A stretch of 64,000 nucleotides of DNA, taken from Candidatus Omnitrophota bacterium. GTDB lineage: Bacteria > Omnitrophota > Gorgyraeia > Pluralincolimonadales > Pluralincolimonadaceae. Both the position numbers and the translations under genes were made by a program. The stretch covers positions 409,476 through 473,475 of the forward strand of contig JAQUPL010000001.1 of the NCBI GenBank assembly GCA_028716565.1, in the 5' to 3' direction. Positions 12,482 to 64,000 of this stretch are shown piece by piece (position 1 is the stretch's first letter; each line of letters begins with the position of its first letter). Below the pieces are notes generated by a model. The model saw nothing but the letters and a program-made list of their open reading frames with translations, did not search any database and had not been told where the DNA came from.

Positions 12482-13191
12482 TCCTCGGCAACCGGTTTTT
12501 TCATGAAATACATAAATCTCCTAAGCGGAGATTGGATCGCGCCCCTGCTTAGCCTCCATTTCTGAAAGTTTATAGAATCCAAATTTTTGAAAAATTTTTC
12601 ATAGTTACCGGGGATATCTCTTTTAATGCCGCTGACGGCTTTCCAGTCTCCCCCGGATAAGTCTGAAATGCCGGCTATCTGGCCTTTTTTGTTCACGAAA
12701 TAGACGCCGTTATAGACGTCAAAAACGGCCCACGTACCCCTTAAGTTCACGAACGACAAAGGTTTCCTCCCCTCCCCCGTTTCTGAATATACGTCATAAA
12801 AGAAGGAATTGACGTTTGCGTAGTTACAGAGGGTGGTAAAAACGTCCTGGAACTGGTCGTCGACCGCGTATCCCCTTATAATGATATGCCAGACATGATC
12901 GTCTATTATGGGTAATTCCTTCGGATTGTCCTTTAAGTTTGCGCGTGTCCATTCAAATATCTTCATCGCCTTATCTTCGTCGCTTTTGGCGCCCGAGACT
13001 ATCTTCTTCGCCAGGACCCCATAATTATAATGCCTGTCAAAGAAATCCAGTAATTTAAGATATAAAGGCAGCTTGACGGCATGGACTTTATAATTTACTC
13101 CCTGCAGGGTCGTGACCTCCAGGTTAAGGAGGAGCGCCGTTACGGCCAAAGCGGCGATACAGCCCAGCAACCCGTATCTGTATTTTTTCAT
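12478..13191 (-). CDS. hypothetical exported or membrane-anchored protein (last gene of the long minus-strand unit)
   Basis: N-terminal hydrophobic signal/anchor LLGCIAALAVTALLL; no confident family assignment. Confidence 0.45.
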   Translation of the reverse strand: MKKYRYGLLGCIAALAVTALLLNLEVTTLQGVNYKVHAVKLPLYLKLLDFFDRHYNYGVLAKKIVSGAKSDEDKAMKIFEWTRANLKDNPKELPIIDDHVWHIIIRGYAVDDQFQDVFTTLCNYANVNSFFYDVYSETGEGRKPLSFVNLRGTWAVFDVYNGVYFVNKKGQIAGISDLSGGDWKAVSGIKRDIPGNYEKFFKNLDSINFQKWRLSRGAIQSPLRRFMYFMKKPVAED

Positions 13192-43327: not shown

Positions 43328-44676
43328 CCGGCTGCGCGCCCGTCTTTATTGGCAAGGAAATATTTTGCGATATGGAGCATCTTATAATCATCATATTTTT
43401 TCGCCGCGACCTGCAAGCCGAAAGGCAATCCGTTCGGGCCCGTAAATGCCGGTATGTTCAAGACAGGGTAACCGAGGAATGTCCAGATCAGGCAGGTATC
43501 CGGCTTTTCCCTCTCGTCGATAAGGGGAGGCTCTCCGGAAGTGGACAGTGTCAACACCGCATCGTATCCCGCCAGTTCCTTCCCTATCCTTGCGCCGATC
43601 CGGACTTGCTCTCCTAACGCATCGGCATATTCGGCGCCTGTGATCCGGTTGCCCCGCTCTATTATCTCATACATCAATTCACTGATAAGCGTGTGCTGTT
43701 TAAACTCATCCTTGAAATAATAGGACAGTGTCTTGTCGTAGATCGTCGAGTGGATGTCATGTATCTTATTAAAATCTGCGGAGGGCTTGATCTTGACAAG
43801 CTCGACCTGCCCCTTCCCCTTCAGGCCGCGGATATACGAATCGAACGCATCCATCGCGTATTTTTCGAACTTATTAAAGACATGTATCCCGCCGGAAATG
43901 AAACCGACTTTGATCTTCCTGGAAAGTCTTATTGGGGAATTCCGGTCAAGGGTCGCGTTGACGAAAGGATAATTGCTCCCCCTCACCCTGATGACGTCAA
44001 AAAGCAGCTTGACGTCATCGACGGTCCTGGCCAGCAATCCGACCGTATCCAATGAATCCGTCGTCTTGAGCATGGCCGTCCTCGGGACCGTCCCGAACGT
44101 CGGCTTAAAACCGTATACCCCGCAATAGCTCGCCGGCCTTATTATCGAACCCGCGGTCTGGGTGCCTAAAGCTAACGGCACCATATACGAAGCGACGGCC
44201 GCAGCCGAACCGCTCGATGAAGTGCCGGGGGAATAACGGGGATCGTGCGGGTTAACCGTCTTATTCTTAGGCAGGTAATGGACTGCGAACTCTGCGCTGA
44301 CGGTCTTGCCCAGGACCAGCCCGTCCTGCATCCGGATAGAATGGACTACCCTTGCGTCGTTGCCGGGCGTAAAACCCTTCCATAAGGGGCTCCCCATAGC
44401 GGTAGGCATATCGCTGGTATTGAATATATCCTTCACTCCTACCGGGACCCCGGCCAATGACCCTAATTCCTTCTTCTTGTCAAGGCGCTTCGCATGCCTT
44501 ATTGCCGATTCCGGGTCTATATATTCCCAGGCCTTGACTACAGGGTCTTTTTCCGAGACCGCTTCCAGACAGTCGCGGCAGGCCTCTTCGACGCTTACTT
44601 TTTTACTCTTGATTTTCTTGATCAGCTCTGTCGCAGAAAGAAGGTTTAATTTCATATTTTTACCTTTTCGTATCAC
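43324..44676 (-). CDS. amidase-signature family enzyme
   Basis: GGSSSGSAAAVAS amidase signature. Confidence 0.7.
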   Translation of the reverse strand: MIRKGKNMKLNLLSATELIKKIKSKKVSVEEACRDCLEAVSEKDPVVKAWEYIDPESAIRHAKRLDKKKELGSLAGVPVGVKDIFNTSDMPTAMGSPLWKGFTPGNDARVVHSIRMQDGLVLGKTVSAEFAVHYLPKNKTVNPHDPRYSPGTSSSGSAAAVASYMVPLALGTQTAGSIIRPASYCGVYGFKPTFGTVPRTAMLKTTDSLDTVGLLARTVDDVKLLFDVIRVRGSNYPFVNATLDRNSPIRLSRKIKVGFISGGIHVFNKFEKYAMDAFDSYIRGLKGKGQVELVKIKPSADFNKIHDIHSTIYDKTLSYYFKDEFKQHTLISELMYEIIERGNRITGAEYADALGEQVRIGARIGKELAGYDAVLTLSTSGEPPLIDEREKPDTCLIWTFLGYPVLNIPAFTGPNGLPFGLQVAAKKYDDYKMLHIAKYFLANKDGRAAG

Positions 44677-45824
44677 GGGAGCAGCTTCGCCTTTTTGTCG
44701 CGCTTATCTTTCAGTATCTTCTCAAACTCCTTTTCGCTGTAACCCGTAATTTTAAGGTAGTAATCGAGCGATTTCGAGGGCCTTTGGGCGTCATGTTTCT
44801 TCGCCAGCTCAAAACCTTCCTCCCGCGTCAATAGCCCGGTGCGGACGTCGATCGAGGCGTGGTCGGTGCCCCTGCCGAATCCCCTCTTGATGAATTTGGA
44901 ATAATCGTGCATCCCTGCCATCCTGCATTCGGCGCTTTTGTATCCCTTGTAAGTCCCCTCGATCTTATCTTCGCGCCAGCCGAAATTGTCGCGGACGAAC
45001 TCTGTCTGTCTTTCGTCGTCCCAGAACATGTAGTCCCCAAGGTAGATACCTACGATGCCCGCCTTCTCGACCTCTTCTTTCGAAGGAAGGACATACCCGA
45101 GGACATCGCTTAAGGATATGTTTTTGTCTACCACCTCTTCCGCGTAGTATCTTGCCGATATCTTGGTGAAATAATCGCGGTCATACGGGATGGGATCGAA
45201 ATACGTAGCGCGGCCGTGATTCTCCCCGCCCGGCTCGCCCCATATCAGCAGCTTTATTTTGTATTTCACCGCTATCTGCAAAGGGAACGCCCCCACGCCG
45301 GCATGGCAATGCCAGCACGTGTCCCCTATAAGCTGCAGGGATTTCTTCGCCAGTTTATTGACCGCCGACCTTTTGGGCGTGAACATGATGTGGTCCACAT
45401 CAAATCTCTCTAGCGCGTTCTCGAGGTTATATTTGCCGGTCTCGCTGTACCAGTTATGGTTGAAGGTGACAGCCAAAGGGTTCAATTTGTATACCTGCGT
45501 CACAACATACAGCTGGAAGGTGCTGTCCTTTCCGCCGCTTATAGGGACGATACAGTCGTAATTGCTCCCGTCCTTTGAACGGTATTTCTCAAGGATCTTC
45601 CTCAGCTTCGCCTCCCTCTCCTTCCAGTTTATGTGTATCTTCTGTTCGGAAGAACGGCAGGGCTGGCAGATACCCATTTCGTCGAATGCCAGGCCTTCGG
45701 CCGTCTCCGGCATGCAGCAGCGGACACAGTATCTTATCTTCCCGTGAAAGAGCGGTTTGCCGTATCCGGCCTTTTTGGCCAACCGTTCGTAACGCGTCTG
45801 CTTAACGCGCTTTTTATCGCCCAT
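44673..45824 (-). CDS. N-acetyl sugar amidotransferase (WbpG/PseA/WbuX family PP-loop ATPase)
   Basis: CxxC zinc ribbon at the N-terminus and CIVPISGGKDST PP-loop. Confidence 0.7.
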   Translation of the reverse strand: MGDKKRVKQTRYERLAKKAGYGKPLFHGKIRYCVRCCMPETAEGLAFDEMGICQPCRSSEQKIHINWKEREAKLRKILEKYRSKDGSNYDCIVPISGGKDSTFQLYVVTQVYKLNPLAVTFNHNWYSETGKYNLENALERFDVDHIMFTPKRSAVNKLAKKSLQLIGDTCWHCHAGVGAFPLQIAVKYKIKLLIWGEPGGENHGRATYFDPIPYDRDYFTKISARYYAEEVVDKNISLSDVLGYVLPSKEEVEKAGIVGIYLGDYMFWDDERQTEFVRDNFGWREDKIEGTYKGYKSAECRMAGMHDYSKFIKRGFGRGTDHASIDVRTGLLTREEGFELAKKHDAQRPSKSLDYYLKITGYSEKEFEKILKDKRDKKAKLLP

Positions 45825-45830
45825 TTCCCG

Positions 45831-46388
45831 TCACCTCGCCTTCTTTCTTCTCATATACTCATCGCGCAATATGCCGTATTCTATGATATCCTGGTAGGCG
45901 CCGTCCTTTAAGAACGCCTGGCGCCTGCGGCCTTCCTTTTTCATCCCCATGTGGGCGGCCAGTCCTTGCATCGCGATATTTTTCTCGTTGGTCCCGCAGT
46001 AGACCCTGTGCAAATTAAGCGCCAGGAAAGCGTGCCGCAATAACAGGCCCGACGCTTCCTTGGCTATTCCCCTGCCCCAATACTTCTTCTCCCCGATGAT
46101 TATGGCAAATTCCCCATTTCTCGCTATCCAGTCGATCCCGTGCAATGCAATATTCCCGATATGCCGGTCGTTCTTTTTGGACACTATCGCGAGCACAAGG
46201 TCAGAGCCGCTGTTATTCACCCTGTCTACGTAACTTTCCGCCTTGGCGGCCGAGTTCGGGAAGCGCCCATGGGCGTTGTTGCGGCATACTTCCCGGTCGT
46301 TAAGCCACTGAGGATAATTGCCTTTAACATCACCCTTCTCAATAGCTCTGAGATAGATCTGTTTTCCTTCCAAAAATACGGATCTCAT
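45831..46388 (-). CDS. GNAT-family N-acetyltransferase
   Basis: RGRGIAKEASGLL acetyl-CoA binding motif; 185 aa. Confidence 0.65.
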   Translation of the reverse strand: MRSVFLEGKQIYLRAIEKGDVKGNYPQWLNDREVCRNNAHGRFPNSAAKAESYVDRVNNSGSDLVLAIVSKKNDRHIGNIALHGIDWIARNGEFAIIIGEKKYWGRGIAKEASGLLLRHAFLALNLHRVYCGTNEKNIAMQGLAAHMGMKKEGRRRQAFLKDGAYQDIIEYGILRDEYMRRKKAR

Positions 46389-52179: not shown

Positions 52180-53009
52180 CTGTGTAATATGGTCCTGGTT
52201 TTTTCGATCACGGAAAACCCGTTCCTGATGTAAAAATTCATAGCCGCAATATTCCCGATCTGCGTTTCAGTCACCATTTCAAAACGCCTAAAATGCCTGA
52301 TAACATGCCGTATCAACGCGGTGCCCACGCCTGCGCCCGCGAACTTTGCCGCTACCGCCACATAGGCCAAAAAGACCTTTTTCTTCCGCGCATCCTTATG
52401 GCACAGGATTACTCCCGCAGCTTCACCGCCGATTCGCGCGGCGAAGAGAGACCGCGTTGCGGAAGGTTTGAAATTTTTTAAATAACTGATCCAAAGCAGG
52501 TCTGCTTTTTCTTTCCGTATATGCCGATCGGTATGGAAACGGTCGCATGTGAATACCGAGCCCAGTCTGGAATACGGCAGGCCCTCATTCGTTTCCAGCT
52601 TTTCTATCTTACAACCAAGCGCTCCTCTCTTGGCGTGCGCAGCCATAGACCTCCCGGCGCAGCATTCCCTATCCTGATATTTAAGGGTTACTTCGGTATT
52701 AATGTATTTAAAACCGGCAGAATACAAAAAATCTAATACCTTTATTCCGGTCGCCGTGTCGATCTTGGCGGTAATAAATGTATCCTTAAAGGATCTCCTG
52801 AACTTTTCGTCAAGCTCGGAGGACGGCGTCAATTCCAGCCTGCCGGCATCCAGCAGAAAAGAAGGCCTTCCGAAAAAACCGGTGTCCCACGACAAAAATT
52901 TCAGGCGGATCTTCGCGCCGGCCGCCTTAAGCGTGATGTCTTTCATATATTTCATCCACTGCCTCCCTGATAGAGTCTGTCCTCGGGAAAATGCCCGGGT
53001 CCACGGCAA
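52167..53009 (-). CDS. GNAT-family N-acetyltransferase (PseH/WecD-like position after the PseG-like gene)
   Basis: C-terminal VAVAAKFAGAGVGTALI acetyl-CoA motif. Likely internal start MKYMKDI at about 52955. Confidence 0.5.
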   Translation of the reverse strand: MPWTRAFSRGQTLSGRQWMKYMKDITLKAAGAKIRLKFLSWDTGFFGRPSFLLDAGRLELTPSSELDEKFRRSFKDTFITAKIDTATGIKVLDFLYSAGFKYINTEVTLKYQDRECCAGRSMAAHAKRGALGCKIEKLETNEGLPYSRLGSVFTCDRFHTDRHIRKEKADLLWISYLKNFKPSATRSLFAARIGGEAAGVILCHKDARKKKVFLAYVAVAAKFAGAGVGTALIRHVIRHFRRFEMVTETQIGNIAAMNFYIRNGFSVIEKTRTILHRWSR

Positions 53010-53931
53010 CGCTGCGGCGCAGCGCCTCTTTTACCATTACGGGATCGATCGTCCGGAATCCCATATAACGGGCGTATCTTTTCTTATCAAAATATTCGCA
53101 CCTCGTGACTTGATGTTCATACACCGCCGTCAGTAAAGCCGGCGTACGCGTACAGACCAGTTCATACGCGGTAAGCCCCCCCGCGGAGATAGCAAGGTCG
53201 CAATTCATATATTCCTGGAACATGCTCGCAATATTCTGTTTTAATTCATACTTTAGCGCCAGGTCACCGAGCCTGCGCTTCAGCGTTTCCCTGTATCTAT
53301 AACCCGAGCCCAGGATAATATGCAATTCCAGCGAGGTATCGAGGCCTGCCAGCGCCTCTACCGCCTTTTTTGTGAGGTCAAATTCATCGGCTCCGCCTAG
53401 CGTTATCAATACAGTCCTGACCGTCTCTTTATCCTTCCTTTCGCGTATACGATCGAATTGAAAGTCGGCCGGCAGGATCACATACTGCGGCCCAAGGAGG
53501 AAACGCGCCCTGCCTGCCGCGCGCCCTCTAAAGGTCTCCTCAGCCGATACATCCCAGTTCACGACCAGGTCGAAATCGTCCGGCACGGCGCCGTCAAAGC
53601 ACACACACGCCTTTATCGCTTCAGGCGTTATCCCGCGGTAATCAGCCAGCGGCCTTTCAGTGATCTCAAAGAAGGCCGCGTCGATACCGTTCTTCTTTAT
53701 ATACCTGTTTATGTTGTCCACCTCTTCTTCGATGCCGCTGTCCGGGTCGATCACGCTCAGGTTCTTTAACGCGTGTTTTTCTGCCAGCGCTAGGCCCAGG
53801 TCATACCCCCTGATGATAAAATGCGCTCTCCAGCCCTCCTTCTCAAAATACCTGGACAGGTGTATCAGGGAGACCAGGTCACCCGTGCCGATACAGGTTT
53901 TAGCGTCTGCCCTGAATACTATGTTCTTCAT
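52927..53931 (-). CDS. PseG-like UDP-sugar hydrolase (pseudaminic acid biosynthesis-associated, MurG-like fold)
   Basis: MKNIVFRADAKTCIGTGDLVSLIHL N-terminus and C-terminal LITLGGAD...CDLAISAGGLTAYEL resemble PseG. Confidence 0.5.
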   Translation of the reverse strand: MKNIVFRADAKTCIGTGDLVSLIHLSRYFEKEGWRAHFIIRGYDLGLALAEKHALKNLSVIDPDSGIEEEVDNINRYIKKNGIDAAFFEITERPLADYRGITPEAIKACVCFDGAVPDDFDLVVNWDVSAEETFRGRAAGRARFLLGPQYVILPADFQFDRIRERKDKETVRTVLITLGGADEFDLTKKAVEALAGLDTSLELHIILGSGYRYRETLKRRLGDLALKYELKQNIASMFQEYMNCDLAISAGGLTAYELVCTRTPALLTAVYEHQVTRCEYFDKKRYARYMGFRTIDPVMVKEALRRSVAVDPGIFPRTDSIREAVDEIYERHHA

Positions 53932-55001
53932 CTCAAAATGTCCGCCCAGGTAAGAGGTTCGCCTGACGGAATATCCCTTTTAGCGGTGACCCTGTGATCC
54001 TCGAATAAGCTCATATATTCCGGCGCAAGCCCATGCGCCTTTTTGCCGGGCCTGAGGACGGCGATGTGCGAGGGCTTTATTGCCTTCCCTTTCTTAATGT
54101 CCCTGCGCGCAAAAAGGCTCATGAAGGCAAAATCCCTCAGGTAACGTTCATGGGGAAATGTCACCTTGGCCGTCGTGCCGTACAAAAGTTTATCGATAGT
54201 GAAATTTTTACGCTTATGCGCGGTTTCTGCCGACCTGACATCCTTTACCATCTTTTCAATCTCATCCGGTTCCAACGCAAAGAAATGGTCAGGACCCGCC
54301 ATTTTTCTGTCCAGGGTAATGTGTTTTTCTATGATAGAAGCGCCGAGATAGACCGCCTGTACCGCGGCGTCGGAGACCTCTGCGGTGTGGTCGGAGAATC
54401 CGACCGCGATGCCCGAAAAAGCCAGCTTCAAGGTCTCTATCACCCCAAGGTTGCAGTCCTTGAGCGGCGTCGGATACTTCAACGAGCAATGTAAGAGCGC
54501 TATTTTATCATGATAACGTTTAACGGTAAAAACTGCCTTTTCAACCTCGCCCAGGCTCGCTCCGCCCGTGGAGATGATTACCGGAAGCCCGGTCTGCGCG
54601 CACTGTTGGAGCAACGGCAGGTTTGTAATCGAATACGAAGCGATCTTGATCCGTTTCAGTCCCTTCTCAACCATTGTCCTGAGCCCGCGCGCGTCGAAAA
54701 CAGAGGCGAGGAAATCTATCTTCTTCCCTGCGCAATGGCGCATGAGCCGCGTAATCCACGCTTCGGGCATTTCAAACCGCTTTGCCGCATCGAAGATATC
54801 GTAAGAATATGCCCCTTTGGCGTCTTTCCAGTCCAGTTTGCCCGCCGTCTCCGGATAAAGATATTTCGCTTTGAAATGCTGGAACTTCGCGGCATTACAG
54901 CCCGCGGCTGCGGCGGCGTCGATCATCTCCAGGCAGTTATCGAGAGAGCCGTTATGGTTGATGCCTATTTCCGCTATTACATAGACCGGCCTGTCAGGCA
55001 C
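53928..55001 (-). CDS. NeuB/PseI-family nonulosonic acid synthase with C-terminal SAF domain
   Basis: VIAEIGINHNGSLDNCLEMIDAAAAAGCNAAKFQ TIM-barrel motif and a C-terminal SAF-like region. Confidence 0.8.
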   Translation of the reverse strand: MPDRPVYVIAEIGINHNGSLDNCLEMIDAAAAAGCNAAKFQHFKAKYLYPETAGKLDWKDAKGAYSYDIFDAAKRFEMPEAWITRLMRHCAGKKIDFLASVFDARGLRTMVEKGLKRIKIASYSITNLPLLQQCAQTGLPVIISTGGASLGEVEKAVFTVKRYHDKIALLHCSLKYPTPLKDCNLGVIETLKLAFSGIAVGFSDHTAEVSDAAVQAVYLGASIIEKHITLDRKMAGPDHFFALEPDEIEKMVKDVRSAETAHKRKNFTIDKLLYGTTAKVTFPHERYLRDFAFMSLFARRDIKKGKAIKPSHIAVLRPGKKAHGLAPEYMSLFEDHRVTAKRDIPSGEPLTWADILR

Positions 55002-56019
55002 TCCTTAACCTTCCCACCATATTGATATTCCTTGCCAGGTGGTTCTTGTAGATCAGTTCCGGTGTAAGAAAATCCAGGGCATCGGCATTATCGCCGAAAT
55101 AGGGGTCCTTGTAGCTAAGGTAATTCTTGATCACCCCGATCTCCGTGATTATCGTTTCGTGCTCCAGGACCTCAAACCCCGCTTTTTCAAAAAGCATGGA
55201 AAGGGTCTCCCTGCTAAAGAACTGGATATGAGAATGCCCCGCAAAAACGCCTGCTTTTTCATGCATGATCCGGTTGACAAGCGCATCCATGCAAGGGACT
55301 GAAATAAAAATTATGCCTTTTGGTTTTAATATCTTCTTTACCTCCAGCACTGTCTCTAAGGGCTCCCTCAAGTGCTCAAGGGTGTTCAATAAAAAGATGC
55401 AATCAAACCTACGCTTGATCTCTTGCTTAAGCGGGAAAAAATCGCCTATATAATCTATTTCTTTTTCCGTTAAAAATTTATGGCAGCGCCGGTTAGGTTC
55501 GACGCCAAAAGCGTAGTATCCCCTCTTTTTTGCTTCGCCAAGTAATGTGCCCGGCCCGCAGCCCACATCGCAAATACCTATATCACTTTTTTCCTTACTG
55601 TCGAAATAAAACTCGGCGATATCCAGGCTGTACCTTGCCTCCAGGGCCTGCATCTTTATCTGCTCCGCGCTTTCCAAAACAGCCTCCCAGGAATCCTCGG
55701 CGCTCCAGAGTTTCTTGTATTCATCATTATTCAGGATCCGGTTTACATATACCAACCCGCAGCTCTTGCACTTTACATGAGGGAACCCATACTTTACAAA
55801 AACCGCATCGTGGTCTCCTGACTTGCACAACGGACAGGCTCTCTTCTCGGCGAACTTATCATAAATAAGCCCGGTACCGGGATCGGTCCATTGGTCATCA
55901 TGGGTCTCCCTGTAAGCGAGGTGGTCATCGCGCTTGGTCAACAGGTTGAACTTGCGAGTGCCATAGACTATACTGGCATCAAACTCATTCCTTCTTTTTA
56001 CTCGTTCCTCAAAATTCAT
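54994..56019 (-). CDS. SAM-dependent methyltransferase with N-terminal Cys4 zinc ribbon
   Basis: CPLCKS...CKSCG zinc ribbon and ICDVGCGPGTLL motif I. Same architecture as 37086..38078. Confidence 0.6.
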   Translation of the reverse strand: MNFEERVKRRNEFDASIVYGTRKFNLLTKRDDHLAYRETHDDQWTDPGTGLIYDKFAEKRACPLCKSGDHDAVFVKYGFPHVKCKSCGLVYVNRILNNDEYKKLWSAEDSWEAVLESAEQIKMQALEARYSLDIAEFYFDSKEKSDIGICDVGCGPGTLLGEAKKRGYYAFGVEPNRRCHKFLTEKEIDYIGDFFPLKQEIKRRFDCIFLLNTLEHLREPLETVLEVKKILKPKGIIFISVPCMDALVNRIMHEKAGVFAGHSHIQFFSRETLSMLFEKAGFEVLEHETIITEIGVIKNYLSYKDPYFGDNADALDFLTPELIYKNHLARNINMVGRLRSA

Positions 56020-56041
56020 TTTTCACTCCCGTGTTTGCATG

Positions 56042-57154
56042 TCAGCGTAAGGGGTATCGCAATTGCCACTTCCCGCCCTCTTTCTTCCAGATCTCGGGAT
56101 TCCTGTGCTTATCCACTATCTCATGGAAATCTTTTTCTGTAAGATCCAGGTATTCCAGCATATCCTTGAAATAATACGCCGGGAATTCATCGTCGTATTT
56201 TTTTGCCAATTCCAGGCCCTGCTCCCTGGTGAGCTGCTTATTCTGGATCATCCTGCTGGCATCCCTCACCGCCCTGCCGAAACCGAACTTTATGAACTGC
56301 ATGTAATAGTAAAGGTTGTCGGACTTGTCATCGAGGCTGTCGAAATCGGTGTAGGTCCCTTCCGACCTTCCGGTGGGGCATGTCTTGAAGTCGAATTTTT
56401 CCTTTATGTACAGGAAGTTCTCGTAACTGCTCCATTTGAAGAAATAACCGAAGTAAAGCGCCTTTACTCCCACCTTCCTGACTTCCTCCAGGCCGGGATA
56501 GAGGTAAGGATTGAGGTCCTTCGCCGTGATTTTGTCGTCTACCCAGTTCCTGGGATCGTCGCCTATCTGGTGCTCTATGACCTCGGTAAAGTCCCGCAGT
56601 TTCTTCGACTCCTCTTTCAGGACCTTCCCCCCGTATTCGCTCTCCCCGTGTTCGGCGTAAAAGACCAGCGGCACCTTGTAATTCACCGCGGCCTGGACGG
56701 GTATCGTATTGACGCCGGCGTCCCATGCTACCTTATGGTTGCCGCGTTCTATAAAGAACCTGCGCGACAGCCGACGGTGTATGCGCTGGTTGGGGCGGAA
56801 GAAAAGATGGTCGAAACCAAGTTGGACCATCATCTCGCGGTTGTAGTTTCCCACATCAGTAGGCAGCTGCGGGGAGAATGTCGTCATGAGCGGGTTCATC
56901 CCGAACTCATATTTCAACTTGTATGCCACGGCGCTGCTGTCCTTTCCGCCGCTCCACGGTACGATACAGTCCCATGACCCGTTTTCGGACCGATATTGCC
57001 CCAGGAGGTCGAGGAATTCCTTTTTTCTGGCCTGCCAATCTATGCCTTCCCATTTATTCTCGGCATTCCTGCACGCGTTGCAAATACCTTCCTTGTCAAA
57101 AGATATCCTCGGCCTGGTGGAAGGCATGAGGCACCGTTTACAATAAATGACCAT
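56042..57154 (-). CDS. N-acetyl sugar amidotransferase (WbpG/WbuX family), second copy
   Basis: CKRC...CNAC zinc ribbon and CIVPWSGGKDSS PP-loop. Confidence 0.7.
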   Translation of the reverse strand: MVIYCKRCLMPSTRPRISFDKEGICNACRNAENKWEGIDWQARKKEFLDLLGQYRSENGSWDCIVPWSGGKDSSAVAYKLKYEFGMNPLMTTFSPQLPTDVGNYNREMMVQLGFDHLFFRPNQRIHRRLSRRFFIERGNHKVAWDAGVNTIPVQAAVNYKVPLVFYAEHGESEYGGKVLKEESKKLRDFTEVIEHQIGDDPRNWVDDKITAKDLNPYLYPGLEEVRKVGVKALYFGYFFKWSSYENFLYIKEKFDFKTCPTGRSEGTYTDFDSLDDKSDNLYYYMQFIKFGFGRAVRDASRMIQNKQLTREQGLELAKKYDDEFPAYYFKDMLEYLDLTEKDFHEIVDKHRNPEIWKKEGGKWQLRYPLR

Positions 57155-57171
57155 TTTAAATCCTCTCCCGT

Positions 57172-57945
57172 TTATGTCCTGACATCGATACCCGAGTCCT
57201 TCAGGAAATTTTTCGCGCTCTTTATGCTCGTTTCCGTAAAATGGTATATATTCGTGGTGCAGACAGCCGACGCGTGGCCGTCCTTAAAGCCGTCCACAAA
57301 ATCCTGCCATTTCCCCGCGCCTCCGCATACGAGGACCGGTATCCCTACCTCATCGGCGACCATCCTGTTAAGCCCGTTATCGTATCCTTCCAAAGAACCG
57401 TCCTTATCTATGGAAGATATAAATATCTCTCCCGCGCCGAGGCCTTCGGCCCTTTTTGCCCATTCCGCCGGGTCCAGCCCGGATTTCTTCCTGCCAAAAT
57501 CCGTGAAAACTTCGTATTTACCCCGTTCGTCTTTCTTCGCGTCGATGGAGAGGACGACGCATTGCGAGCCGTACAGCTTTGCAGCCTCGCTGATGAACTC
57601 CGGCCGTTCCACCGCCGCAGTATTGATGACCACTTTATCCGCACCCAAACCAAGCAGCGTCTTAAAGTCCTCAATGCACCTTACCCCGCCTCCGGCCGCA
57701 AGAGGGACAAAGCATTTTTCGGCGAAGCGGCCCACGACATCATAAAAATTCTTCCTCTCTCCGGTGCCTGGACGGGTCACGTCCAGGACGACGATCTCAT
57801 CGACCGACCAGGAATCTACGAAATTCAGGGTATAACGGTAATCCGGGCAGAAATCTTTAGTCCGGAAAAGGACCCCGTTATTGAACGTCAGGACGGTTAT
57901 CAGCCTGTTCTTAAGCATGCCGGGCCCCGGCCAAAAAATTCTCAA
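57172..57945 (-). CDS. HisF-like imidazole glycerol phosphate synthase cyclase-subunit homolog (WbuZ/HisF2-like)
   Basis: (beta/alpha)8 HisF motifs VPLAAGGGVR, GADKVVINTAAV and VLVCGGAG. Probable start MLKNRLI at about 57918. Confidence 0.75.
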   Translation of the reverse strand: MRIFWPGPGMLKNRLITVLTFNNGVLFRTKDFCPDYRYTLNFVDSWSVDEIVVLDVTRPGTGERKNFYDVVGRFAEKCFVPLAAGGGVRCIEDFKTLLGLGADKVVINTAAVERPEFISEAAKLYGSQCVVLSIDAKKDERGKYEVFTDFGRKKSGLDPAEWAKRAEGLGAGEIFISSIDKDGSLEGYDNGLNRMVADEVGIPVLVCGGAGKWQDFVDGFKDGHASAVCTTNIYHFTETSIKSAKNFLKDSGIDVRT

Positions 57946-58528
57946 GCATCTTTAACCCGTGGAGCTGGCTCTTCTCCGGATGGAATTGTGTCGCGTATAT
58001 GTTTCCGCGGTTAAGTACGGCGGCGAACCGGTTTCCATATTCGCATTCTCCGATGACATCATCCGGATTGGCGCACCGGATATGATAACTGTGCACATAA
58101 TAAAAAAGTGCGTCCTGCGGGATCCCGTCGAAAAGCATGTTCGCCTTCCGCTGGATAAGGCCGTTCCACCCGACATGGGGGATCCGGACGCCCGGCGCAT
58201 CTATCTTTACCACCGACGCATCGATCCATCCGAGGCCTTTATGGTGGCCGAATTCAAAACTCTCTTTTGCCATCAGTTGCGACCCCAGGCATATACCAAG
58301 GACGGGTTTATGTTCCCTAAGGACCATCCTGTCAAGCGCATCTGCGAGCCCCAACCGGCGCAGGTTCCCGATGCCGTCCCCGAACGCGCCGACTCCGGGT
58401 ATTATGATCTTTTCGCACTTTTCCAGCCCGGCGGGATCGGCGGTGATAAGAGGCTCATAATTCAGTTTCCTGACCGCGCCTGCGACCGAACGGAGGTTGC
58501 CCAGGCCGTAATCGACGATGGCTATCAT
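57911..58528 (-). CDS. HisH-like class I glutamine amidotransferase (WbuY/HisH2-like)
   Basis: MIAIVDYGLGNLRSV N-terminus and catalytic GICLGSQLM. Start at 58528 forms an ATGA overlap with the upstream stop. Confidence 0.75.
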   Translation of the reverse strand: MIAIVDYGLGNLRSVAGAVRKLNYEPLITADPAGLEKCEKIIIPGVGAFGDGIGNLRRLGLADALDRMVLREHKPVLGICLGSQLMAKESFEFGHHKGLGWIDASVVKIDAPGVRIPHVGWNGLIQRKANMLFDGIPQDALFYYVHSYHIRCANPDDVIGECEYGNRFAAVLNRGNIYATQFHPEKSQLHGLKMLENFLAGARHA

Positions 58529-60213
58529 CGGGGACCTGCCGGAGGCACGGTCTCGACATTGAAGACCTTGACCCATTCGTTGAAGACATGCTTCCTGTAT
58601 TCGCTCCTGTCATACTTGCCGTTCTTTCCCCATCCGAACCAGCGGTTCACCGGCGCGCTGAAACCCCTTTTATCGACACGCGCTGCTATTTCGGCCGGGA
58701 TGAACTTCTTCGCTACCCTCTTCAGTATCCATTTGGTGACACCATCCTTGATCTTATACTTGGACGGCATGCTGAATGCGAACTGGATAAGCCGGTAGTC
58801 CAAAAACGGCGCGCGGTTCTCGACATGAAAAGCCATGTTGATCCTGTCGGCGAACTGCAGGAGCTCTTGCATGCTCGTATAGAAATCCGCGAGCCCCATG
58901 GCGTGGATATGGTCGTTATTTATCCTCCCGAAGAAATCCCCTATCGTCTCCTCAAGGTACTTCACGACTTCCTGGTTATATTTGTTCTCACAGCGGTTCA
59001 CGATCCTGGCGTACCTCTCCACCGTGGAACCGTAATAACGGTCTATGAGGTAAGAATACTGTCTGAGGGCCTCCAGCTGCTTTATGCTCTCATCGTGGTT
59101 CAAAAGGTGGTAGCGGTGATACCCGGAAAATATCTCATCCGCCCCGTCCCCGGAAAGGACGACCTTTATATCCCTGCTGGCGCGCTCAAGGAGCATCCAG
59201 AGGCTGAAGCTGGTCCAGGTGCACGGCGTATCAAGATGGTATACGATCTTTCGGTTCGTTCGGCGGAAATCCTCCTGCGTGGGCCTGACCACCACCAGCC
59301 TCTTCTTGATCTTTTTCGCGACAAGCTGGGCATAATGCAATTCGTCATAGTCCTTGGCTATGGGATAATGGCACGTGTAGATGTAATCCGGCTTGGCAAT
59401 GCAGGCGATCAGCGCGCTGTCCACGCCGCCGCTCACGAATGTCCCGAAACGGTGCACGCAATTCTTCGTCCTCAAAAGTATGGAATCGACAAGAAGGTCT
59501 GTCAACCGCGACTCTATCTTCTTAAGGTCATCCGGCATCTCCGTCAGGTTGTCCCATATCTTCCAATATGAGTGTTTCGTCACGTTAAGCGCCCTGTCGA
59601 TCTTCAGGTAGTCGCCAGGCATCAAGCAGTAGATGTCTTTGAACAGGGTCTTCTCGCCGGTGTTGAACTCGAACGCCTCATACGAAAGGCACTCGCGGTT
59701 GTAGATGGGCTTCACCAGTTTAAGCAGCGCTTTGATCTCGCTCGCAAAAGCGAAAAAATCACCGCTGCGTACATAATACAACGGTTTTTCTCCCGCCCTG
59801 TCCCGGACGATATACATCTCTTTATCCCGGCCGTCATAGATAGCGAACGCATACATACCGTTATAATCACGGAACGAAGAAGTTTTTTGTTTCAGGTAAT
59901 GGCAAAGCACAGTCTCCGCATCCGATTGGGTCTTGAACTCATACTCTCCGCGGTATGAACGCCGTATATCTTCGTGGTTATAGATCTCGCCGTTATATAC
60001 GATGACAGCCGAGCCGTCCGGCGCCTCATAGGGTATATCGTGCCTTTCCTTGTCGATGATGCTCAGCCTCACCATCCCCAGCGCCAGGCCCTTACGGGAA
60101 TAGATCCCGGACTGGTCCGGGCCGCGGTGGCTGATCTCCTTCAGCATATCATGCACGATCTGCCGCGGGTCATGTTCGGGGTTGTTCGATATGTAGCCGG
60201 CTATTCCGCACAT
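58525..60213 (-). CDS. asparagine synthase (glutamine-hydrolysing) family amidotransferase, second copy
   Basis: MCGIAGY nucleophile Cys and SGGVDSA PP-loop. Confidence 0.8.
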   Translation of the reverse strand: MCGIAGYISNNPEHDPRQIVHDMLKEISHRGPDQSGIYSRKGLALGMVRLSIIDKERHDIPYEAPDGSAVIVYNGEIYNHEDIRRSYRGEYEFKTQSDAETVLCHYLKQKTSSFRDYNGMYAFAIYDGRDKEMYIVRDRAGEKPLYYVRSGDFFAFASEIKALLKLVKPIYNRECLSYEAFEFNTGEKTLFKDIYCLMPGDYLKIDRALNVTKHSYWKIWDNLTEMPDDLKKIESRLTDLLVDSILLRTKNCVHRFGTFVSGGVDSALIACIAKPDYIYTCHYPIAKDYDELHYAQLVAKKIKKRLVVVRPTQEDFRRTNRKIVYHLDTPCTWTSFSLWMLLERASRDIKVVLSGDGADEIFSGYHRYHLLNHDESIKQLEALRQYSYLIDRYYGSTVERYARIVNRCENKYNQEVVKYLEETIGDFFGRINNDHIHAMGLADFYTSMQELLQFADRINMAFHVENRAPFLDYRLIQFAFSMPSKYKIKDGVTKWILKRVAKKFIPAEIAARVDKRGFSAPVNRWFGWGKNGKYDRSEYRKHVFNEWVKVFNVETVPPAGPR

Positions 60214-60216
60214 AGT

Positions 60217-61566
60217 CTATTTTGAAAGGTCCAGCGACCCGTCTCCCACCTGGTGGTAACGTATGGGATCCCCAAAACGGAGGTGTTCCCATATCCCGTA
60301 ATTATCGATGATCAGCTTCACTTTCTTTTTGGCATTCCTCACCTTTTGCGGGGCTATGCATTTGTACTGGTTGTGGTCGGAGGCGACCACCACGACATCC
60401 GCGGAGAATACCTTGGACGGGAACGATCTCACCGTGACGCCTTTTATGTACCTGCGTATCTCATCCCCGGTGCAGTACGGGTCGCATATGGAGACCTTCA
60501 ACCCGTTTTTTATGAGATAGTCCGCCAACGTAACCGATGGGGAAAGGGTCAGGTCTTTCTGGTTGCCTTTATAAGTTATGCCCAGTATCTCCACGCTCTT
60601 ATAACCGTGCCGGATGATATAGTCCGCATAACTGAGCACTGACGAAATGCCTATATCCTGGAACTCCTTAAGCAGGGTAAGGTTCCCCGGCTTGTCGCTG
60701 CCTTCTATGAGATAGTCTGTCGAGAACGTCATCTTTTCCCCGCCGGTGCCGATGTTCAATTCGCAATCGGCGAGCGAGATATTGCCGAAAAGGGCTTTCG
60801 ACATCTTCTTCATATTCACGAACGGATACCCCATCGCGAGCTGGCGCAGGAAATCTATGGCCATCGCCTGGATGACGTTCATGGAATTTGCGTAGATCTC
60901 GGCATCTTTTATGCTGTCGAGCATTATTACGGGCAGGCCGAGATGTTCAAGGAGCCTGCGTATCGCCTCCGAACCCTTCGGGCAGCACCCCGCAACGGGC
61001 ATCTTGTCCTTTTTACCGATAAATGCCTCCACGCTCCAGTCTGTCCGGAAAAAGACCCCCACATGATAATCCTTTGATACAGTTATCCTCTCCTTACGGA
61101 GCTTGTCTATGAAGTTCTTCTGGATGTTCCCGGGGATGAAAGCCGATTCGAATATCACCAGGGGGACCGTACCGCTCTTTTTTATATTGCGGGCGAAGAT
61201 CACCGCCATCCTGGACGCAATGGTGTCCTTCCCCGTGTTCTTGCGGCTCTCCGGCATCGCGATGATATGCAGGCGGGAATCTTTGAACATCTCCTCCGCG
61301 CTCTTCGCCACCTGGATGGACGGATAATCCAGTTTCGGCAGGAACCCGTTAAGCGACCAGGTCGCCTTTTGGTTGTTGTCGGGATACCTGCCCCCCGTGA
61401 AGGCCTTAAGCTGCCCGGCATTCAGGTCATAGACCTTGACCTTGAACCCGCTCGTCTGCAGCTTGAATATCGTGGTGTATCCCAGATAGCCAAGGCCCCA
61501 GACGGAAACCGTCTTGTTCTTCATGATATTTTCGAATATCATCTTACCCTCCGCTCTTAAGGACAT
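60217..61566 (-). CDS. UDP-glucose/GDP-mannose dehydrogenase-family homolog, divergent in catalytic region
   Basis: VWGLGYLGYTT NAD motif and C-terminal ILGITYKGNQKDLTLSP UDP-binding motif. The expected GGHCxPxD region reads GTGGEKMTFSTD. Probable start MIFENIM at about 61542. Confidence 0.55.
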   Translation of the reverse strand: MSLRAEGKMIFENIMKNKTVSVWGLGYLGYTTIFKLQTSGFKVKVYDLNAGQLKAFTGGRYPDNNQKATWSLNGFLPKLDYPSIQVAKSAEEMFKDSRLHIIAMPESRKNTGKDTIASRMAVIFARNIKKSGTVPLVIFESAFIPGNIQKNFIDKLRKERITVSKDYHVGVFFRTDWSVEAFIGKKDKMPVAGCCPKGSEAIRRLLEHLGLPVIMLDSIKDAEIYANSMNVIQAMAIDFLRQLAMGYPFVNMKKMSKALFGNISLADCELNIGTGGEKMTFSTDYLIEGSDKPGNLTLLKEFQDIGISSVLSYADYIIRHGYKSVEILGITYKGNQKDLTLSPSVTLADYLIKNGLKVSICDPYCTGDEIRRYIKGVTVRSFPSKVFSADVVVVASDHNQYKCIAPQKVRNAKKKVKLIIDNYGIWEHLRFGDPIRYHQVGDGSLDLSK

Positions 61567-62755
61567 CGTTAATGGTCTCGATCACGTAATCAACGTCCGG
61601 ATCAGACATTCCGGGATACATAGGTATGGATACTATCTCCTCGTAAGCGCGGTCCGCCGCGGGAAAGTCCGAATGGATGAGATCCTTATAGAAAGGATGC
61701 TTATGCAGCGGGATAAAATGCACGCTCGTGCCGATATTGCGCGCCCTGAGCTGCTTAATGAATTCGTCCCTGGGGATGATATCCTTGCCGATGCGCATGG
61801 TAAAGAGGTGGTAAATGTGGTAGTGTTCCGGCTTGTCCTCGGAAAAACGGGCGCGCGGATCAAGGCCGGCCCGGTAGAGCGATGCGATGCGCCTCCGCCT
61901 CTCGTTCATCCGGTCCAGTTTTTTAAACTGCTCAAGGCCTATGGCGGCATGGATGCTGTCCATGTTATATTTATAGCCGATCTCCTCTATCTCGTAGAAC
62001 CAATTGCCTTTTTGGGAATAACGGTTGAAGGCTTCCTTGTTGATGCCAAAATAACTTAATTTCCGCATCTTCTCTATCATTTTCTTGTCCCGGGAAACCG
62101 CCATGCCCCCTTCGCCGCATGCCAGGTTCTTGGTAGCGTAGAAACTGAAGACGGAGACATCCCCGAAGCTGCCGATCTTCCTGCCTTTATATTGCGTGCC
62201 GATGGCGTGCGCGGCATCCTCTATGACCGTCAGGCCATGCTCTTTGGCCGCGGAAAGTATCGCATCCATCTCGCACGGATAGCCCGCAAAATGGACCGGC
62301 ATGATTGCCTTGGTCCGCGGATTGATAAGGGACTTCATCTTTTCGACGTCGATATTAAGGGATGACTCATAGACATCGCATAATACGGGTGTTGCTCCGG
62401 TCCATAAGACCACGTGGCCCGTAGCGGCAAATGTCCATGTCGGGACTATCACCTCATCCCCTTTACCGATACCGCAGGCCAATAAGGCCAGGTAGAGGCC
62501 CGCCGTGCAGGAATTCAGGGCTACGGCATTGGCCTGGCCTCCGAGATATCCCGTCACGGCATTTTCAAATTCCGTCACACGCGGCCCGGTAGTCAAATAC
62601 CCGCTCCGGATGACTTCGGCCACCGCCTCGATCTCTTCGGTCCCCATAAACGGCTTTGCCAGCGGCAAAAATTCATTACGCATTTTGTACGGTCTCCCCT
62701 GTTCCCTGGTTGCCGATCTCCGGATACCAGGAATCGCATCCTTTACACACTTCAT
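61544..62755 (-). CDS. DegT/DnrJ/EryC1/StrS-family PLP-dependent sugar aminotransferase, second copy
   Basis: DAAHAIGT...VFSFYATKNLACGEGG. Probable start MRNEFLPLAKP at about 62683. Confidence 0.8.
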   Translation of the reverse strand: MKCVKDAIPGIRRSATREQGRPYKMRNEFLPLAKPFMGTEEIEAVAEVIRSGYLTTGPRVTEFENAVTGYLGGQANAVALNSCTAGLYLALLACGIGKGDEVIVPTWTFAATGHVVLWTGATPVLCDVYESSLNIDVEKMKSLINPRTKAIMPVHFAGYPCEMDAILSAAKEHGLTVIEDAAHAIGTQYKGRKIGSFGDVSVFSFYATKNLACGEGGMAVSRDKKMIEKMRKLSYFGINKEAFNRYSQKGNWFYEIEEIGYKYNMDSIHAAIGLEQFKKLDRMNERRRRIASLYRAGLDPRARFSEDKPEHYHIYHLFTMRIGKDIIPRDEFIKQLRARNIGTSVHFIPLHKHPFYKDLIHSDFPAADRAYEEIVSIPMYPGMSDPDVDYVIETINDVLKSGG

Positions 62756-63542
62756 CGATCAATTCCATCGTTTCGTGCTGCCTCCGCAGGTCCTTATAAG
62801 ACCGGCAATTCCATATCGCTTTGATGGGCGAGGTATTGGCGTCCCCCAGCGGCGAACTGTTCCAATCGTGGTTGCATCTTCCCACTTTACCGTCAAAAAA
62901 TATAAGCATCTCATAGAACGGCATCACGCACCCCACACGCCCGCTCCTCTTCACGCCAAGGGAGCCGAACGTGCCGTTACGGGAATGTTCCTCATATATA
63001 CGTATGCGGTCTACCTTGCCATTCCATATGTTTTTGAAGATCTCCGCGTTCCGGGGCGGCGTCTCCGGTGTTTTTACCATTGAGACCTGGGTTTTAACGC
63101 GGCCTTTATTCATTTTTAAGAACTGCAGTATTGCGGCCTCGACCTTGTCGTATTTCGCCGGCGCGCGCGTCTTGTTGTATACTTCCGGGATATCGAGGCT
63201 GAATGAGATAAAATTTATCGCCTCGATGACCGCCTTTGACTTCGGCCCGTCTAAGAGCGTCGCGTTGGTCGCCATCTGGACTTCCTTGAATTTACCCTTC
63301 ACATACCCGCATATCTCGATGAAATCCGGGTGCAACAAGCTCTCCCCGCGCCTGTGGAGCACGAGGATCGTATCCGGATACGCTGATATCTCATCGATCA
63401 GCCTTTTAAAGAATGAGAGGTCCATGAAACCGCGGAGGTCGTCCACGTACCTGCGCGGGCAATAGGAGCAGCGCAGGTTGCACGAAGCCGCCAACTCGAT
63501 CTCTATCCTCCGGGGGAAATCCCCCGCATCATATTTCTTCAT
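62676..63542 (-). CDS. radical SAM protein with C-terminal Cys-rich SPASM/twitch-like extension
   Basis: ASCNLRCSYC (CxxxCxxC) and additional Cys clusters CVMPF...RCNHDW and CKGCDSW. Confidence 0.65.
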   Translation of the reverse strand: MKKYDAGDFPRRIEIELAASCNLRCSYCPRRYVDDLRGFMDLSFFKRLIDEISAYPDTILVLHRRGESLLHPDFIEICGYVKGKFKEVQMATNATLLDGPKSKAVIEAINFISFSLDIPEVYNKTRAPAKYDKVEAAILQFLKMNKGRVKTQVSMVKTPETPPRNAEIFKNIWNGKVDRIRIYEEHSRNGTFGSLGVKRSGRVGCVMPFYEMLIFFDGKVGRCNHDWNSSPLGDANTSPIKAIWNCRSYKDLRRQHETMELIDEVCKGCDSWYPEIGNQGTGETVQNA

Positions 63543-64000
63543 GCCATAAGCCCGATCGTTTTGTTCCTTACGGTTTCCAGCACCTCTTTTGAAGTGAAGG
63601 CGAGCGGGTCGACCAATTCGCTCACGATAGCGTTAGCCCTTTTCAGGTCGCCGGGTTGGTCGATAGTCAACCTTATCCCATGCAAAAATTCCGGGTTGAG
63701 CCCGGCGTCGATGAATTTTGCCGAAAATTCCTGCGGATGCGACGTTATGTATTTTGTCACGTGCTCCAGGTCTTCTTTTTCCCTGGTCCTCATCGCCGCC
63801 TTCTCCAGGGCTTCCGCGGTTACCGCCTCCGAATAGAAACCGGACGCGCATGTGCTGCGCTCCAATGAAGCATAATCCAGTTTTTCTGCGATGAGCGCCT
63901 TCAGCAGCGTATTGACTAAAGCGGTATCCACGAAAGGGGTATCCGCGCACACGCGGACGACGTATCCGGCGTTCACCGATCCGGCTGCCCGTATGTACCT
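63539..64000 (-). CDS. CTP_transf_3 cytidylyltransferase-like, C-terminal part only (N-terminus beyond window)
   Basis: RLTIDQPGDLKRANAIV resembles the conserved SpsF/NeuA C-terminal block. The reading frame stays open to the window edge. Confidence 0.4.
   Translation of the reverse strand, partial: RYIRAAGSVNAGYVVRVCADTPFVDTALVNTLLKALIAEKLDYASLERSTCASGFYSEAVTAEALEKAAMRTREKEDLEHVTKYITSHPQEFSAKFIDAGLNPEFLHGIRLTIDQPGDLKRANAIVSELVDPLAFTSKEVLETVRNKTIGLMA

Follow-up and report, generated by a model that had tools for sequence, protein, structure and literature searches.

N-Acetyl sugar amidotransferases (NASATs) are recognised by a PP-loop of the form SGGxDS together with a zinc-binding tetracysteine motif, CxxC-Xn-[GN]xCxxC (PMC10607449). 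In Campylobacter jejuni and C. coli, the NASATs PtmG (Cj1324) and PseA (Cj1316c) make the 5-acetamidino form of a CMP-nonulosonic acid, and the adjacent methyltransferase PtmH (Cj1325/6) N-methylates the product (PMC3766260; preprint 10.64898/2026.04.20.719630; PMC5378307); on the legionaminic acid (Leg) branch, CMP-Leg5Ac7Ac is converted by PtmG into CMP-Leg5Am7Ac (Am, acetamidino) and N-methylation by PtmH follows (PMC3766260; preprint 10.64898/2026.04.20.719630). ORF28 and ORF8 of Legionella pneumophila are the counterparts of PtmG and PtmH, respectively (PMC3766260). A three-component architecture is found in Pseudomonas aeruginosa (WbpG/HisH2/HisF2), Escherichia coli O145 (WbuX/WbuY/WbuZ) and Methanococcus maripaludis (MMP1081-1083, Agl); their substrates are hexosamine or hexosaminuronic sugars found in O-antigens or N-glycans, and ammonia is proposed to pass from HisH through the HisF-like protein to the NASAT. 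Interaction of HisF2 with WbpG was found by co-immunoprecipitation in P. aeruginosa, which supports ammonia delivery (PMC11445079), and deletion of MMP1081 in M. maripaludis led to loss of the acetamidino group (PMC2952790). The present analysis deals with a 64 kb stretch of DNA from an uncultured Omnitrophota bacterium (the window; all coordinates are positions in the whole window), in which a HisH/HisF-like/NASAT triad probably constitutes a three-protein, glutamine-dependent amidine synthase within a glycan operon of the nonulosonic-acid (pseudaminic or legionaminic) type. A second NASAT of the same window lies directly upstream of an amidase-signature gene.

Four open reading frames (ORFs) of the block had been named in a preliminary description, and all of them are present on the minus strand, as are all genes of the block; their family E-values are far beyond chance. 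They are AsnB1 (60213..58525; 562 aa; an AsnB-family glutamine-hydrolysing amidotransferase), HisH (58528..57911; 205 aa from the called start; longest ORF 57911..58576), a HisF-like protein (57918..57172; 248 aa from the called start; ORF 57172..57945) and NASAT 1 (WbuX1; 57154..56042; 370 aa; a PP-loop N-acetyl sugar amidotransferase). The spacing between these genes and their neighbours is from -8 to +22 nt, and the called start of hisH overlaps the stop of AsnB1 by 4 nt. An AsnB-like gene had been described as following the triad; the gene is there, but the order has to be reversed, since in the direction of transcription AsnB1 precedes the triad.

NASAT 1 was matched by the WbuX model TIGR03573 with 339.9 bits (E 2e-101; cutoff 203.2) and by no Pfam model; its best solved match is the L. 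pneumophila NASAT structure PDB 8WEX (E 2.5e-68). The PP-loop SGGKDS occupies residues 68-73, and the tetracysteine motif reads C5-x2-C8...G-x-C25-x2-C28; PP-loop and tetracysteine are found in both NASATs of the window. The same two elements are common to NASAT 1 and the L. pneumophila enzyme (LpNASAT; 8WEX; ORF28 of the lipopolysaccharide locus, described as a ptmG homologue), which differs in length (468 aa with a long N-terminal extension, against 370 aa) and whose dimer-interface residues are reported not to be conserved within the family. By homology and inference, NASAT 1 is a predicted amidine-forming synthetase, converting an N-acetyl into an acetamidino group at the expense of ATP. 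In the NCBI annotation both PP-loop proteins already bear the name 'N-acetyl sugar amidotransferase'.

Orthologs of NASAT 1 (55-79% identity) occur in many phyla. A scan restricted to one genome per species gave 54 loci at 55-76% identity, hosted by Omnitrophota, Elusimicrobiota, Woesearchaeota, Nanoarchaeia, Desulfobacterales, Fibrobacterota, many Rhodospirillales, Pelagibacteraceae and Flavobacteriaceae; HisH and HisF-like genes stand next to the NASAT on the same strand in 52 of them, and the two others have the NASAT at a contig end. The exact order of the window (radical SAM/SPASM gene, DegT, dehydrogenase-like gene, AsnB, HisH, HisF-like, NASAT, methyltransferase, NeuB, and PIG-L further on) recurs on another Omnitrophota contig (L145). 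The HisH/HisF-like/NASAT cassette is kept at 55-79% amino acid identity in Omnitrophota, Elusimicrobiota, Uhrbacteria, the archaeal Woesearchaeota and Nanoarchaeia, Desulfobacterota, Rhodospirillales and Pelagibacteraceae, a distribution that suggests spread by wide horizontal transfer, between domains too. In two loci (L004, 9886-13661; L101, 2797-6666) one HisH and HisF-like pair lies between two different NASATs; this layout suggests that a single ammonia-delivery pair can serve two synthetases.

HisH scored 225.6 bits with TIGR01855 (cutoff 105.4). The Cys of its GICLGSQ motif, which the preliminary description had taken as catalytic, and the His and Glu of HPE (in HPEKS) align with the catalytic residues of the solved HisH 4GUD, so that the glutaminase assignment is borne out; outside the context of a his operon, passing TIGR01855 does not imply a role in histidine synthesis. 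For the HisF-like protein the following scores were obtained: PF00977, 175 bits; WbuZ (TIGR03572; the top NCBIfam model, aligned over the full length), 237.1 bits, below the cutoff of 299.7; hisF (TIGR00735; model positions 43-254 only aligned), 220.6 bits, below 294.55; AglZ/HisF2 (NF038364), 190.1 bits, below 310. Alignments with HisF proteins of the PDB begin at about residue 32. The residues were compared by alignment with Thermotoga maritima HisF (identical to 2WJZ_A; 38% identity) and with E. coli HisF (taken from the genome; 29% identity). Asp11, established as essential to the cyclase reaction for T. maritima HisF, is replaced by Thr in the window protein; among 58 NASAT-linked HisF-like proteins none has Asp at this position and 51 have Thr. 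The residues of the ammonia gate (R5, E46, K99 and E167), as well as D130 and D176, are nearly invariant across the NASAT-linked proteins, and the phosphate-site glycines are retained. The window pair thus has in common with imidazole glycerol phosphate synthase the fold, the Cys and His/Glu of HisH, the gate residues and the phosphate-site glycines, and differs from it in the missing Asp11, a shorter loop 1 and the lack of a his operon around it.

The preliminary description had conceded that its interpretation would fall if these were the only histidine genes of the organism, and within the limits of sequence evidence this question is answered. A housekeeping imidazole glycerol phosphate synthase that lies in the glycan operon by chance would account for a HisH that passes its equivalog cutoff, for the retained phosphate-site glycines and for the name 'imidazole glycerol phosphate synthase cyclase subunit' given by NCBI to a 92%-identical relative of the HisF-like protein. 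It was rejected as extremely improbable in view of the loss of Asp11 here and in all NASAT-linked homologs, the sub-threshold hisF score with the first 42 model positions unaligned, the absence of other his genes from the 64 kb window (family-model scans of the window proteins) and the NASAT pairing conserved in 52 of the 54 loci across phyla. Of what marks an authentic HisF (a score above the TIGR00735 cutoff, Asp11 and Asp130), Asp130 alone is kept; the context of WbuZ and AglZ/HisF2, adjacency to both HisH and a NASAT, is found in the window and in the same 52 loci. Because Asp11 is lost in this protein and its 58 relatives while the gate residues are kept, the HisF-like protein is best regarded as a predicted cyclase-inactive ammonia-delivery paralog and proposed activator of HisH, not as a histidine gene; the picture is that of a protein that would keep HisH docking and ammonia passage and would have given up the synthesis of imidazole glycerol phosphate. 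Family models and motifs, the pairing in 52 of 54 loci and a HisF-like protein that has no Asp11 but has kept its ammonia gate uphold the earlier assignment of the triad to acetamidino formation. The block is a further case of the known NASAT/HisH/HisF-like system, partly auto-annotated already, and the core of that interpretation was right but ordinary.

As to the sugar, the surroundings of the triad were compared with the described systems. Directly downstream of NASAT 1 is a gene of an S-adenosylmethionine (SAM)-dependent methyltransferase (54994..56019, minus strand; PF13489, 88.8 bits), followed by a NeuB-family nonulosonic acid synthase (53928..55001, minus; PF03102, 249.5 bits, plus a SAF domain), a PseG-like nucleotide-sugar hydrolase (52927..53931, minus; TIGR03590 PseG, 109.1 bits, below the cutoff of 153.55) and genes of a GNAT protein, a PIG-L deacetylase, a formyltransferase and a cytidylyltransferase. 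Upstream of AsnB1 are a divergent NDP-sugar dehydrogenase-like gene (60217..61542, minus), a DegT/PseC-like sugar aminotransferase (61544..62683, minus; PF01041, 421 bits; PseC, 366.8 bits against a cutoff of 423.5) and a radical SAM/SPASM gene. NeuB is found in 41 and a methyltransferase-like gene in 22 of the 54 NASAT-1 loci. A deacetylase and formyltransferase pair has been described in a legionaminic-acid cluster (preprint 10.64898/2026.04.20.719630), and the window has such a pair too. The order aminotransferase, NASAT, methyltransferase, NeuB is the layout of legC, ptmG, ptmH and neuB in C. jejuni; unlike the Campylobacter PtmG and PseA loci, the window has HisH and the HisF-like gene just upstream of the NASAT, with AsnB before them, and its host is an uncultured Omnitrophota bacterium. 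Owing to the NeuB-, PseG- and PseC-like and CMP-transferase genes and to the methyltransferase directly downstream, the cluster is assigned, as a prediction, to the nonulosonic-acid type (the PseA or PtmG-PtmH kind), and its nearest analogues would be PseA, PtmG with PtmH and L. pneumophila ORF28 rather than the hexosamine enzymes WbpG and WbuX; likeness to PseA, PtmG, WbpG and WbuX individually is a matter of described function and gene order, not of sequence comparison. The O-antigen analogy with WbpG/HisH2/HisF2 and WbuX/Y/Z drawn in the preliminary description holds for the triad architecture and fails for the hexosamine context, given the NeuB-, PseG- and PseC-like, CMP-transferase and methyltransferase genes around.

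That the triad nevertheless amidinates a hexosamine or a hexosaminuronic acid (as with ManNAc3NAmA for WbpG and FucNAm for WbuX) is improbable. The NASAT family does include WbpG and WbuX (PMC10607449), a dehydrogenase-like gene and AsnB lie just upstream, and peaks consistent with an acetimidoyl-modified UDP-HexNAc appear in preprint 10.64898/2026.04.20.719630; set against this are the NeuB-, PseG- and PseC-like and cytidylyltransferase genes that surround the triad, NeuB in 41 of the 54 related loci, the lack of the catalytic Cys in the dehydrogenase-like protein, and the Leg-associated L. pneumophila enzyme, which matches NASAT 1 better than NASAT 2 (234 against 152 bits).

For a nonulosonic-acid substrate, the following course of reaction is proposed. 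HisH would hydrolyse glutamine, and the ammonia released would travel through the barrel of the HisF-like protein (Asp11 gone, R5/E46/K99/E167 gate kept), docked on the NASAT. The PP-loop of the NASAT, with ATP (giving AMP and PPi), would activate the carbonyl oxygen of an N-acetyl group of the sugar, and displacement of the activated oxygen by ammonia would give a positively charged acetamidino group. The likeliest substrate would be a CMP-activated 5,7-diacetamido nonulosonic acid. The methyltransferase directly downstream (54994..56019) is a candidate N-methylase of the acetamidino group and probably methylates the new amidine in the manner of PtmH. Substrate identity, channelling route and methylation target are all drawn from homology and gene order. 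On this scheme the block would be the part of a nonulosonic-acid pathway that installs the acetamidino group, probably in N-methylated form.

Several observations weigh against the assignment of the triad to an amidine synthase of this pathway. The HisF-like protein is under the trusted cutoffs of WbuZ, AglZ/HisF2 and hisF alike. The NeuB-, PseG- and PseC-like proteins are all under the equivalog cutoffs of their pathways (PseC and PseG as given above; PseI, 224.4 against 340.25; NeuB_NnaB, 292.4 against 399.65 bits), which leaves the sugar (pseudaminic acid, legionaminic acid or another) without a name; an assignment to either acid was considered, and no equivalog model passed its cutoff. The methyltransferase is likened to PtmH by gene position and described function, not by sequence. 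A NASAT of a complete Omnitrophota genome (L144, 9001-10215; CP070797.1), 77% identical to NASAT 1, has neither HisH/HisF nor an amidase within 9 kb, so that the linkage of NASAT with HisH/HisF is strong, not absolute. The neighbours of that NASAT are a carbamoyltransferase on one side and two methyltransferases on the other.

The window is almost wholly a single minus-strand run of about 57 glycan-biosynthesis genes. When positions 53000..64000 were scanned for promoters and terminators, promoter-like sites were no more numerous than in shuffles and no convincing minus-strand intergenic terminator was found; the scan is consistent with a single operon and is not informative beyond that.

AsnB1 scored 389.1 bits with TIGR01536 (cutoff 267.1) and was matched by PF00733, GATase_7 and GATase_6 too; it has the N-terminal MCGIAG with the nucleophile Cys2 and the synthetase PP-loop SGGVDS that characterise its family. 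It is predicted to be an intact, self-contained glutamine amidotransferase of carboxylates and, being self-sufficient, would have no need of HisH. A uronic or ulosonic carboxylate had been named as its probable acceptor in the preliminary description, and this remains a tentative assignment. Uronamide formation is the usual role proposed for AsnB-family proteins in glycan loci. The dehydrogenase-like protein encoded next to it is matched by PF03720 (70 bits), with its N-terminal domain below cutoff, and by the UDP-sugar 6-dehydrogenase model TIGR03026 with 105.1 bits (below 189.8); its PDB matches are weak. It has Lys at the position of Cys253 of E. coli Ugd (GTGGEKM against GYGGYCL) and hence no catalytic Cys; its homolog in L145 has Arg there, whereas E. 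coli Ugd, WecC and more distant archaeal relatives keep Cys. The protein may be a pseudoenzyme, or one of changed function, in a conserved block, and since its catalytic Cys is replaced by Lys (Arg in L145), a locally made uronate would be a less likely acceptor for AsnB1.

A different acceptor was considered, namely that AsnB1 acts together with the triad on the same nonulosonic acid (e.g., by amidation of the C1 carboxylate) and not on a uronic acid; this is offered tentatively and is rather unlikely. AsnB-family genes are present in 47 of the 54 NASAT-1 loci, in many cases just behind NeuB or ahead of HisH, the stop of AsnB1 overlaps the start of hisH, and the neighbouring dehydrogenase-like protein is without the Cys needed for uronate, all of which would suit such a role. 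It is countered by the uronamide role usual for the family, by the want of any established precedent known to us for nonulosonic acids amidated at C1, and by the clustering of the sequences: most AsnB-like proteins of the NASAT-1 loci fall into another cluster (about 633 aa; sharing about 30% identity with either AsnB protein of the window), often directly after NeuB (e.g., L039, 5724-8600; L009-L055). Close relatives of AsnB1 were found only in the Omnitrophota loci L005 and L145; the order dehydrogenase-like, AsnB, HisH is repeated in L145, and AsnB, HisH in L005. Carrying the linkage of NeuB with AsnB-like genes in the related loci over to AsnB1 was judged unjustified, those AsnB-like proteins being of the other cluster. 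The literature searched gave no role for this protein of about 633 aa in clusters of the nonulosonic-acid type.

The second copies named in the preliminary description, of AsnB and of the NASAT, are both real. AsnB2 (13188..15089, minus; PF00733, 353.6 bits) has glycosyltransferase genes around it and shares 31% identity with AsnB1; its best NCBIfam match is TIGR03108 (XrtA/PEP-CTERM amidotransferase) with 662.9 bits, below the cutoff of 816.9. NASAT 2 (WbuX2; 44673..45824, minus; TIGR03573, 346.3 bits, above the cutoff of 203.2) is 33% identical to NASAT 1, is matched by 8WEX with E 2.9e-43, has the motifs SGGKDS and YCVRCC...GICQPC and belongs to the amidase-linked clade described below. Multiple amidation sites in the products of the window, as had been suggested from these copies, are plausible.

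NASAT 2 had been described as lacking HisH/HisF partners. This is correct as regards HisH and HisF, but the protein is not without a partner: the gene of an amidase-signature protein (43324..44676, minus) follows, with its start overlapping the stop of NASAT 2, and an amidase-signature gene likewise follows the NASAT in all 52 related loci. The amidase was matched by PF01425 with 242 bits (gathering cutoff 27), and its triad K82, S153, S177 aligns with K62, S131, S155 of malonamidase E2; all 64 amidase partners compared have the Lys/cis-Ser/Ser triad unchanged. Its closest structures are malonamidase E2 (full length) and then GatA (N-terminal half); with the GatA model TIGR00132 it reached 205.3 bits, below the cutoff of 481.1, there is no GatB or GatC near it, and no NCBIfam model names its subfamily. 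The same NASAT-amidase pair was found on three independent contigs with close relatives of NASAT 2. A metagenome scan for NASAT-2 relatives gave 52 distinct loci with enough downstream sequence: the amidase is directly downstream of the NASAT in every one, and HisH/HisF occur anywhere in only one locus, which has extra NASATs beside its HisH/HisF. When 146 NASAT ORFs were clustered by sequence, the cluster of NASAT 2 (n = 83) had the amidase adjacent in 68 cases, 15 undeterminable ones and HisH/HisF in none; the cluster of NASAT 1 (n = 56) had HisH/HisF in 53 and an adjacent amidase in none; six more divergent NASATs had HisH/HisF in 6/6. The type of partner is exclusive by clade.

Both functions also occur in single chains. 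An ORF of 1182 codons in a Desulfobacula metagenome-assembled genome (L040, 12868-16413) joins a NASAT, a degenerate NASAT-like domain and an amidase. With the window amidase as query, the best 150 cluster representatives were examined for NASAT-type regions; such a region lies N-terminal of the amidase in six of them, all within the best 13. Of the six, two are fragments cut short at the N-terminus, and the PP-loop of another is degenerate. In P0364 (874 aa) the NASAT is joined directly to the amidase, with SGGKDS and the amidase motif both intact; P0367 and P0373 are NASAT-amidase fusions as well, and P0366 is grouped with these. Among close NASAT-2 homologs, many are tandem proteins of 600-650 aa (P0242, P0244, P0252, P0266), in which a degenerate N-terminal half (e.g., VDGSMSN for SGGKDS) precedes an intact NASAT; the first 30 residues of NASAT 2 resemble the inter-domain linker of these tandem proteins. 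Upstream of NASAT 2 is a GNAT N-acyltransferase gene (45831..46388, minus; PF13302, 84 bits); orthologs of NASAT 2 repeatedly have a GNAT gene upstream, in P0345 a GNAT is fused to a NASAT, and the GNAT protein of the window probably makes the N-acetyl substrate.

Given that every NASAT needs ammonia and that the two clades do not share partner types, supply of the ammonia by the amidase is the simplest reading, and on balance the amidase is somewhat favoured as an alternative ammonia-generating subunit of NASAT 2, a prediction made from gene context and family membership. NASAT 2 would then carry out the same chemistry as NASAT 1 at another site or on another sugar, its ammonia coming from the amidase directly downstream and not from HisH/HisF. 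A hydrolase with an intact Lys/cis-Ser/Ser triad, paired or fused with an ATP-pyrophosphatase-type synthetase, has parallels in the amidase-signature enzyme GatA of GatCAB and in GMP synthetase and glutamine-dependent NAD synthetase, amidotransferases in which synthetase and hydrolase are fused in a similar layout. In distinction from GatCAB, the NASAT 2 module is without GatB and GatC, its nearest full-length structure is malonamidase E2, and its amidase has no NCBIfam subfamily name.

Two points tell against ammonia supply by the amidase: a fusion may join consecutive steps, as in the GNAT-NASAT protein P0345, so that the NASAT-amidase fusions alone are no proof of it, and over its full length the amidase is structurally nearest to malonamidase E2 rather than to the glutaminase GatA. 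They lend some weight to the amidase being a tailoring hydrolase (removal or exchange of an N-acyl group, or amide hydrolysis, on the sugar), with NASAT 2 working on free ammonium, a less probable but serious possibility: malonamidase E2 is a stand-alone amidase, and at least one NASAT of the NASAT-1 clade (L144) has no adjacent glutaminase. The exclusivity by clade (HisH/HisF in 0/83 and adjacent amidase in 0/56 of the respective clusters), the adjacent amidase in 52/52 loci, the place of GatA, an amidase-signature glutaminase, as the second-nearest structural family, and several independent NASAT-amidase fusions of synthetase-plus-hydrolase layout argue against a tailoring hydrolase. With the amidase as ammonia donor, it would seem, by a cautious preference, that one NASAT clade replaced the HisH/HisF-like pair by an amidase-signature hydrolase related to malonamidase and GatA, to give a two-component, sometimes single-chain, amidine synthase, both solutions being present in one operon here. 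No description of an amidase partner of NASATs was found in the literature searched, which is no proof of novelty.

The rest of the glycan cluster contains the following. An HpcH/HpaI-family aldolase gene lies beside that of a KdsB-type cytidylyltransferase (above the NF009905 cutoff) at 38089-39626, with a methyltransferase and a hexapeptide acyltransferase next; the same arrangement stands after the NASAT-amidase pair on a metagenome contig of hot-spring type (L060, 10332-11901), and the segment may be a third ulosonic-acid module, based on an aldolase and not on NeuB. Genes of five B12-binding radical SAM proteins (9755-11260, 21045-22436, 22441-23913, 34156-35649 and one just upstream of the window; L001, 1-1019) and of at least six SAM methyltransferases suggest an unusually heavily methylated glycan. 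Two proteins of about 600 aa (41465-43327 and 29278-31005) have no Pfam family above threshold and are candidate nonulosonic-acid transferases; the former gave only a faint polysialyltransferase-like match (E 0.007), and its position after the amidase is that of genes of 618-620 aa in L058 and L062, the gene in L062 carrying PF27859 (LIC12162). At the end of the operon (696-3946) are a Wzy_C/O-antigen-ligase-like protein and a WecA-type GT4 initiating transferase fused to a CoA-binding domain, which makes the cluster look like a full set of genes for assembling a lipid-linked glycan.

With acetamidino groups, an acidic, sialic-acid-like sugar becomes net-neutral or cationic, and in Campylobacter and Legionella these groups alter antigenicity, phage recognition, autoagglutination and colonisation. 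The standard machinery for acetamidino sugars is present in uncultured Omnitrophota, and the triad cassette extends as well to candidate-phyla bacteria, DPANN archaea and marine Alphaproteobacteria. What the window adds to the known system is a HisF-like paralog that is recognisably cyclase-dead and a NASAT 2 that is part of a widespread NASAT-amidase pairing. In metabolic reconstructions, HisF-like genes with Thr11 that lie next to a NASAT should be left out of histidine biosynthesis, and NASATs without HisH/HisF are worth checking for an amidase partner, which offers a testable new amidotransferase pairing.

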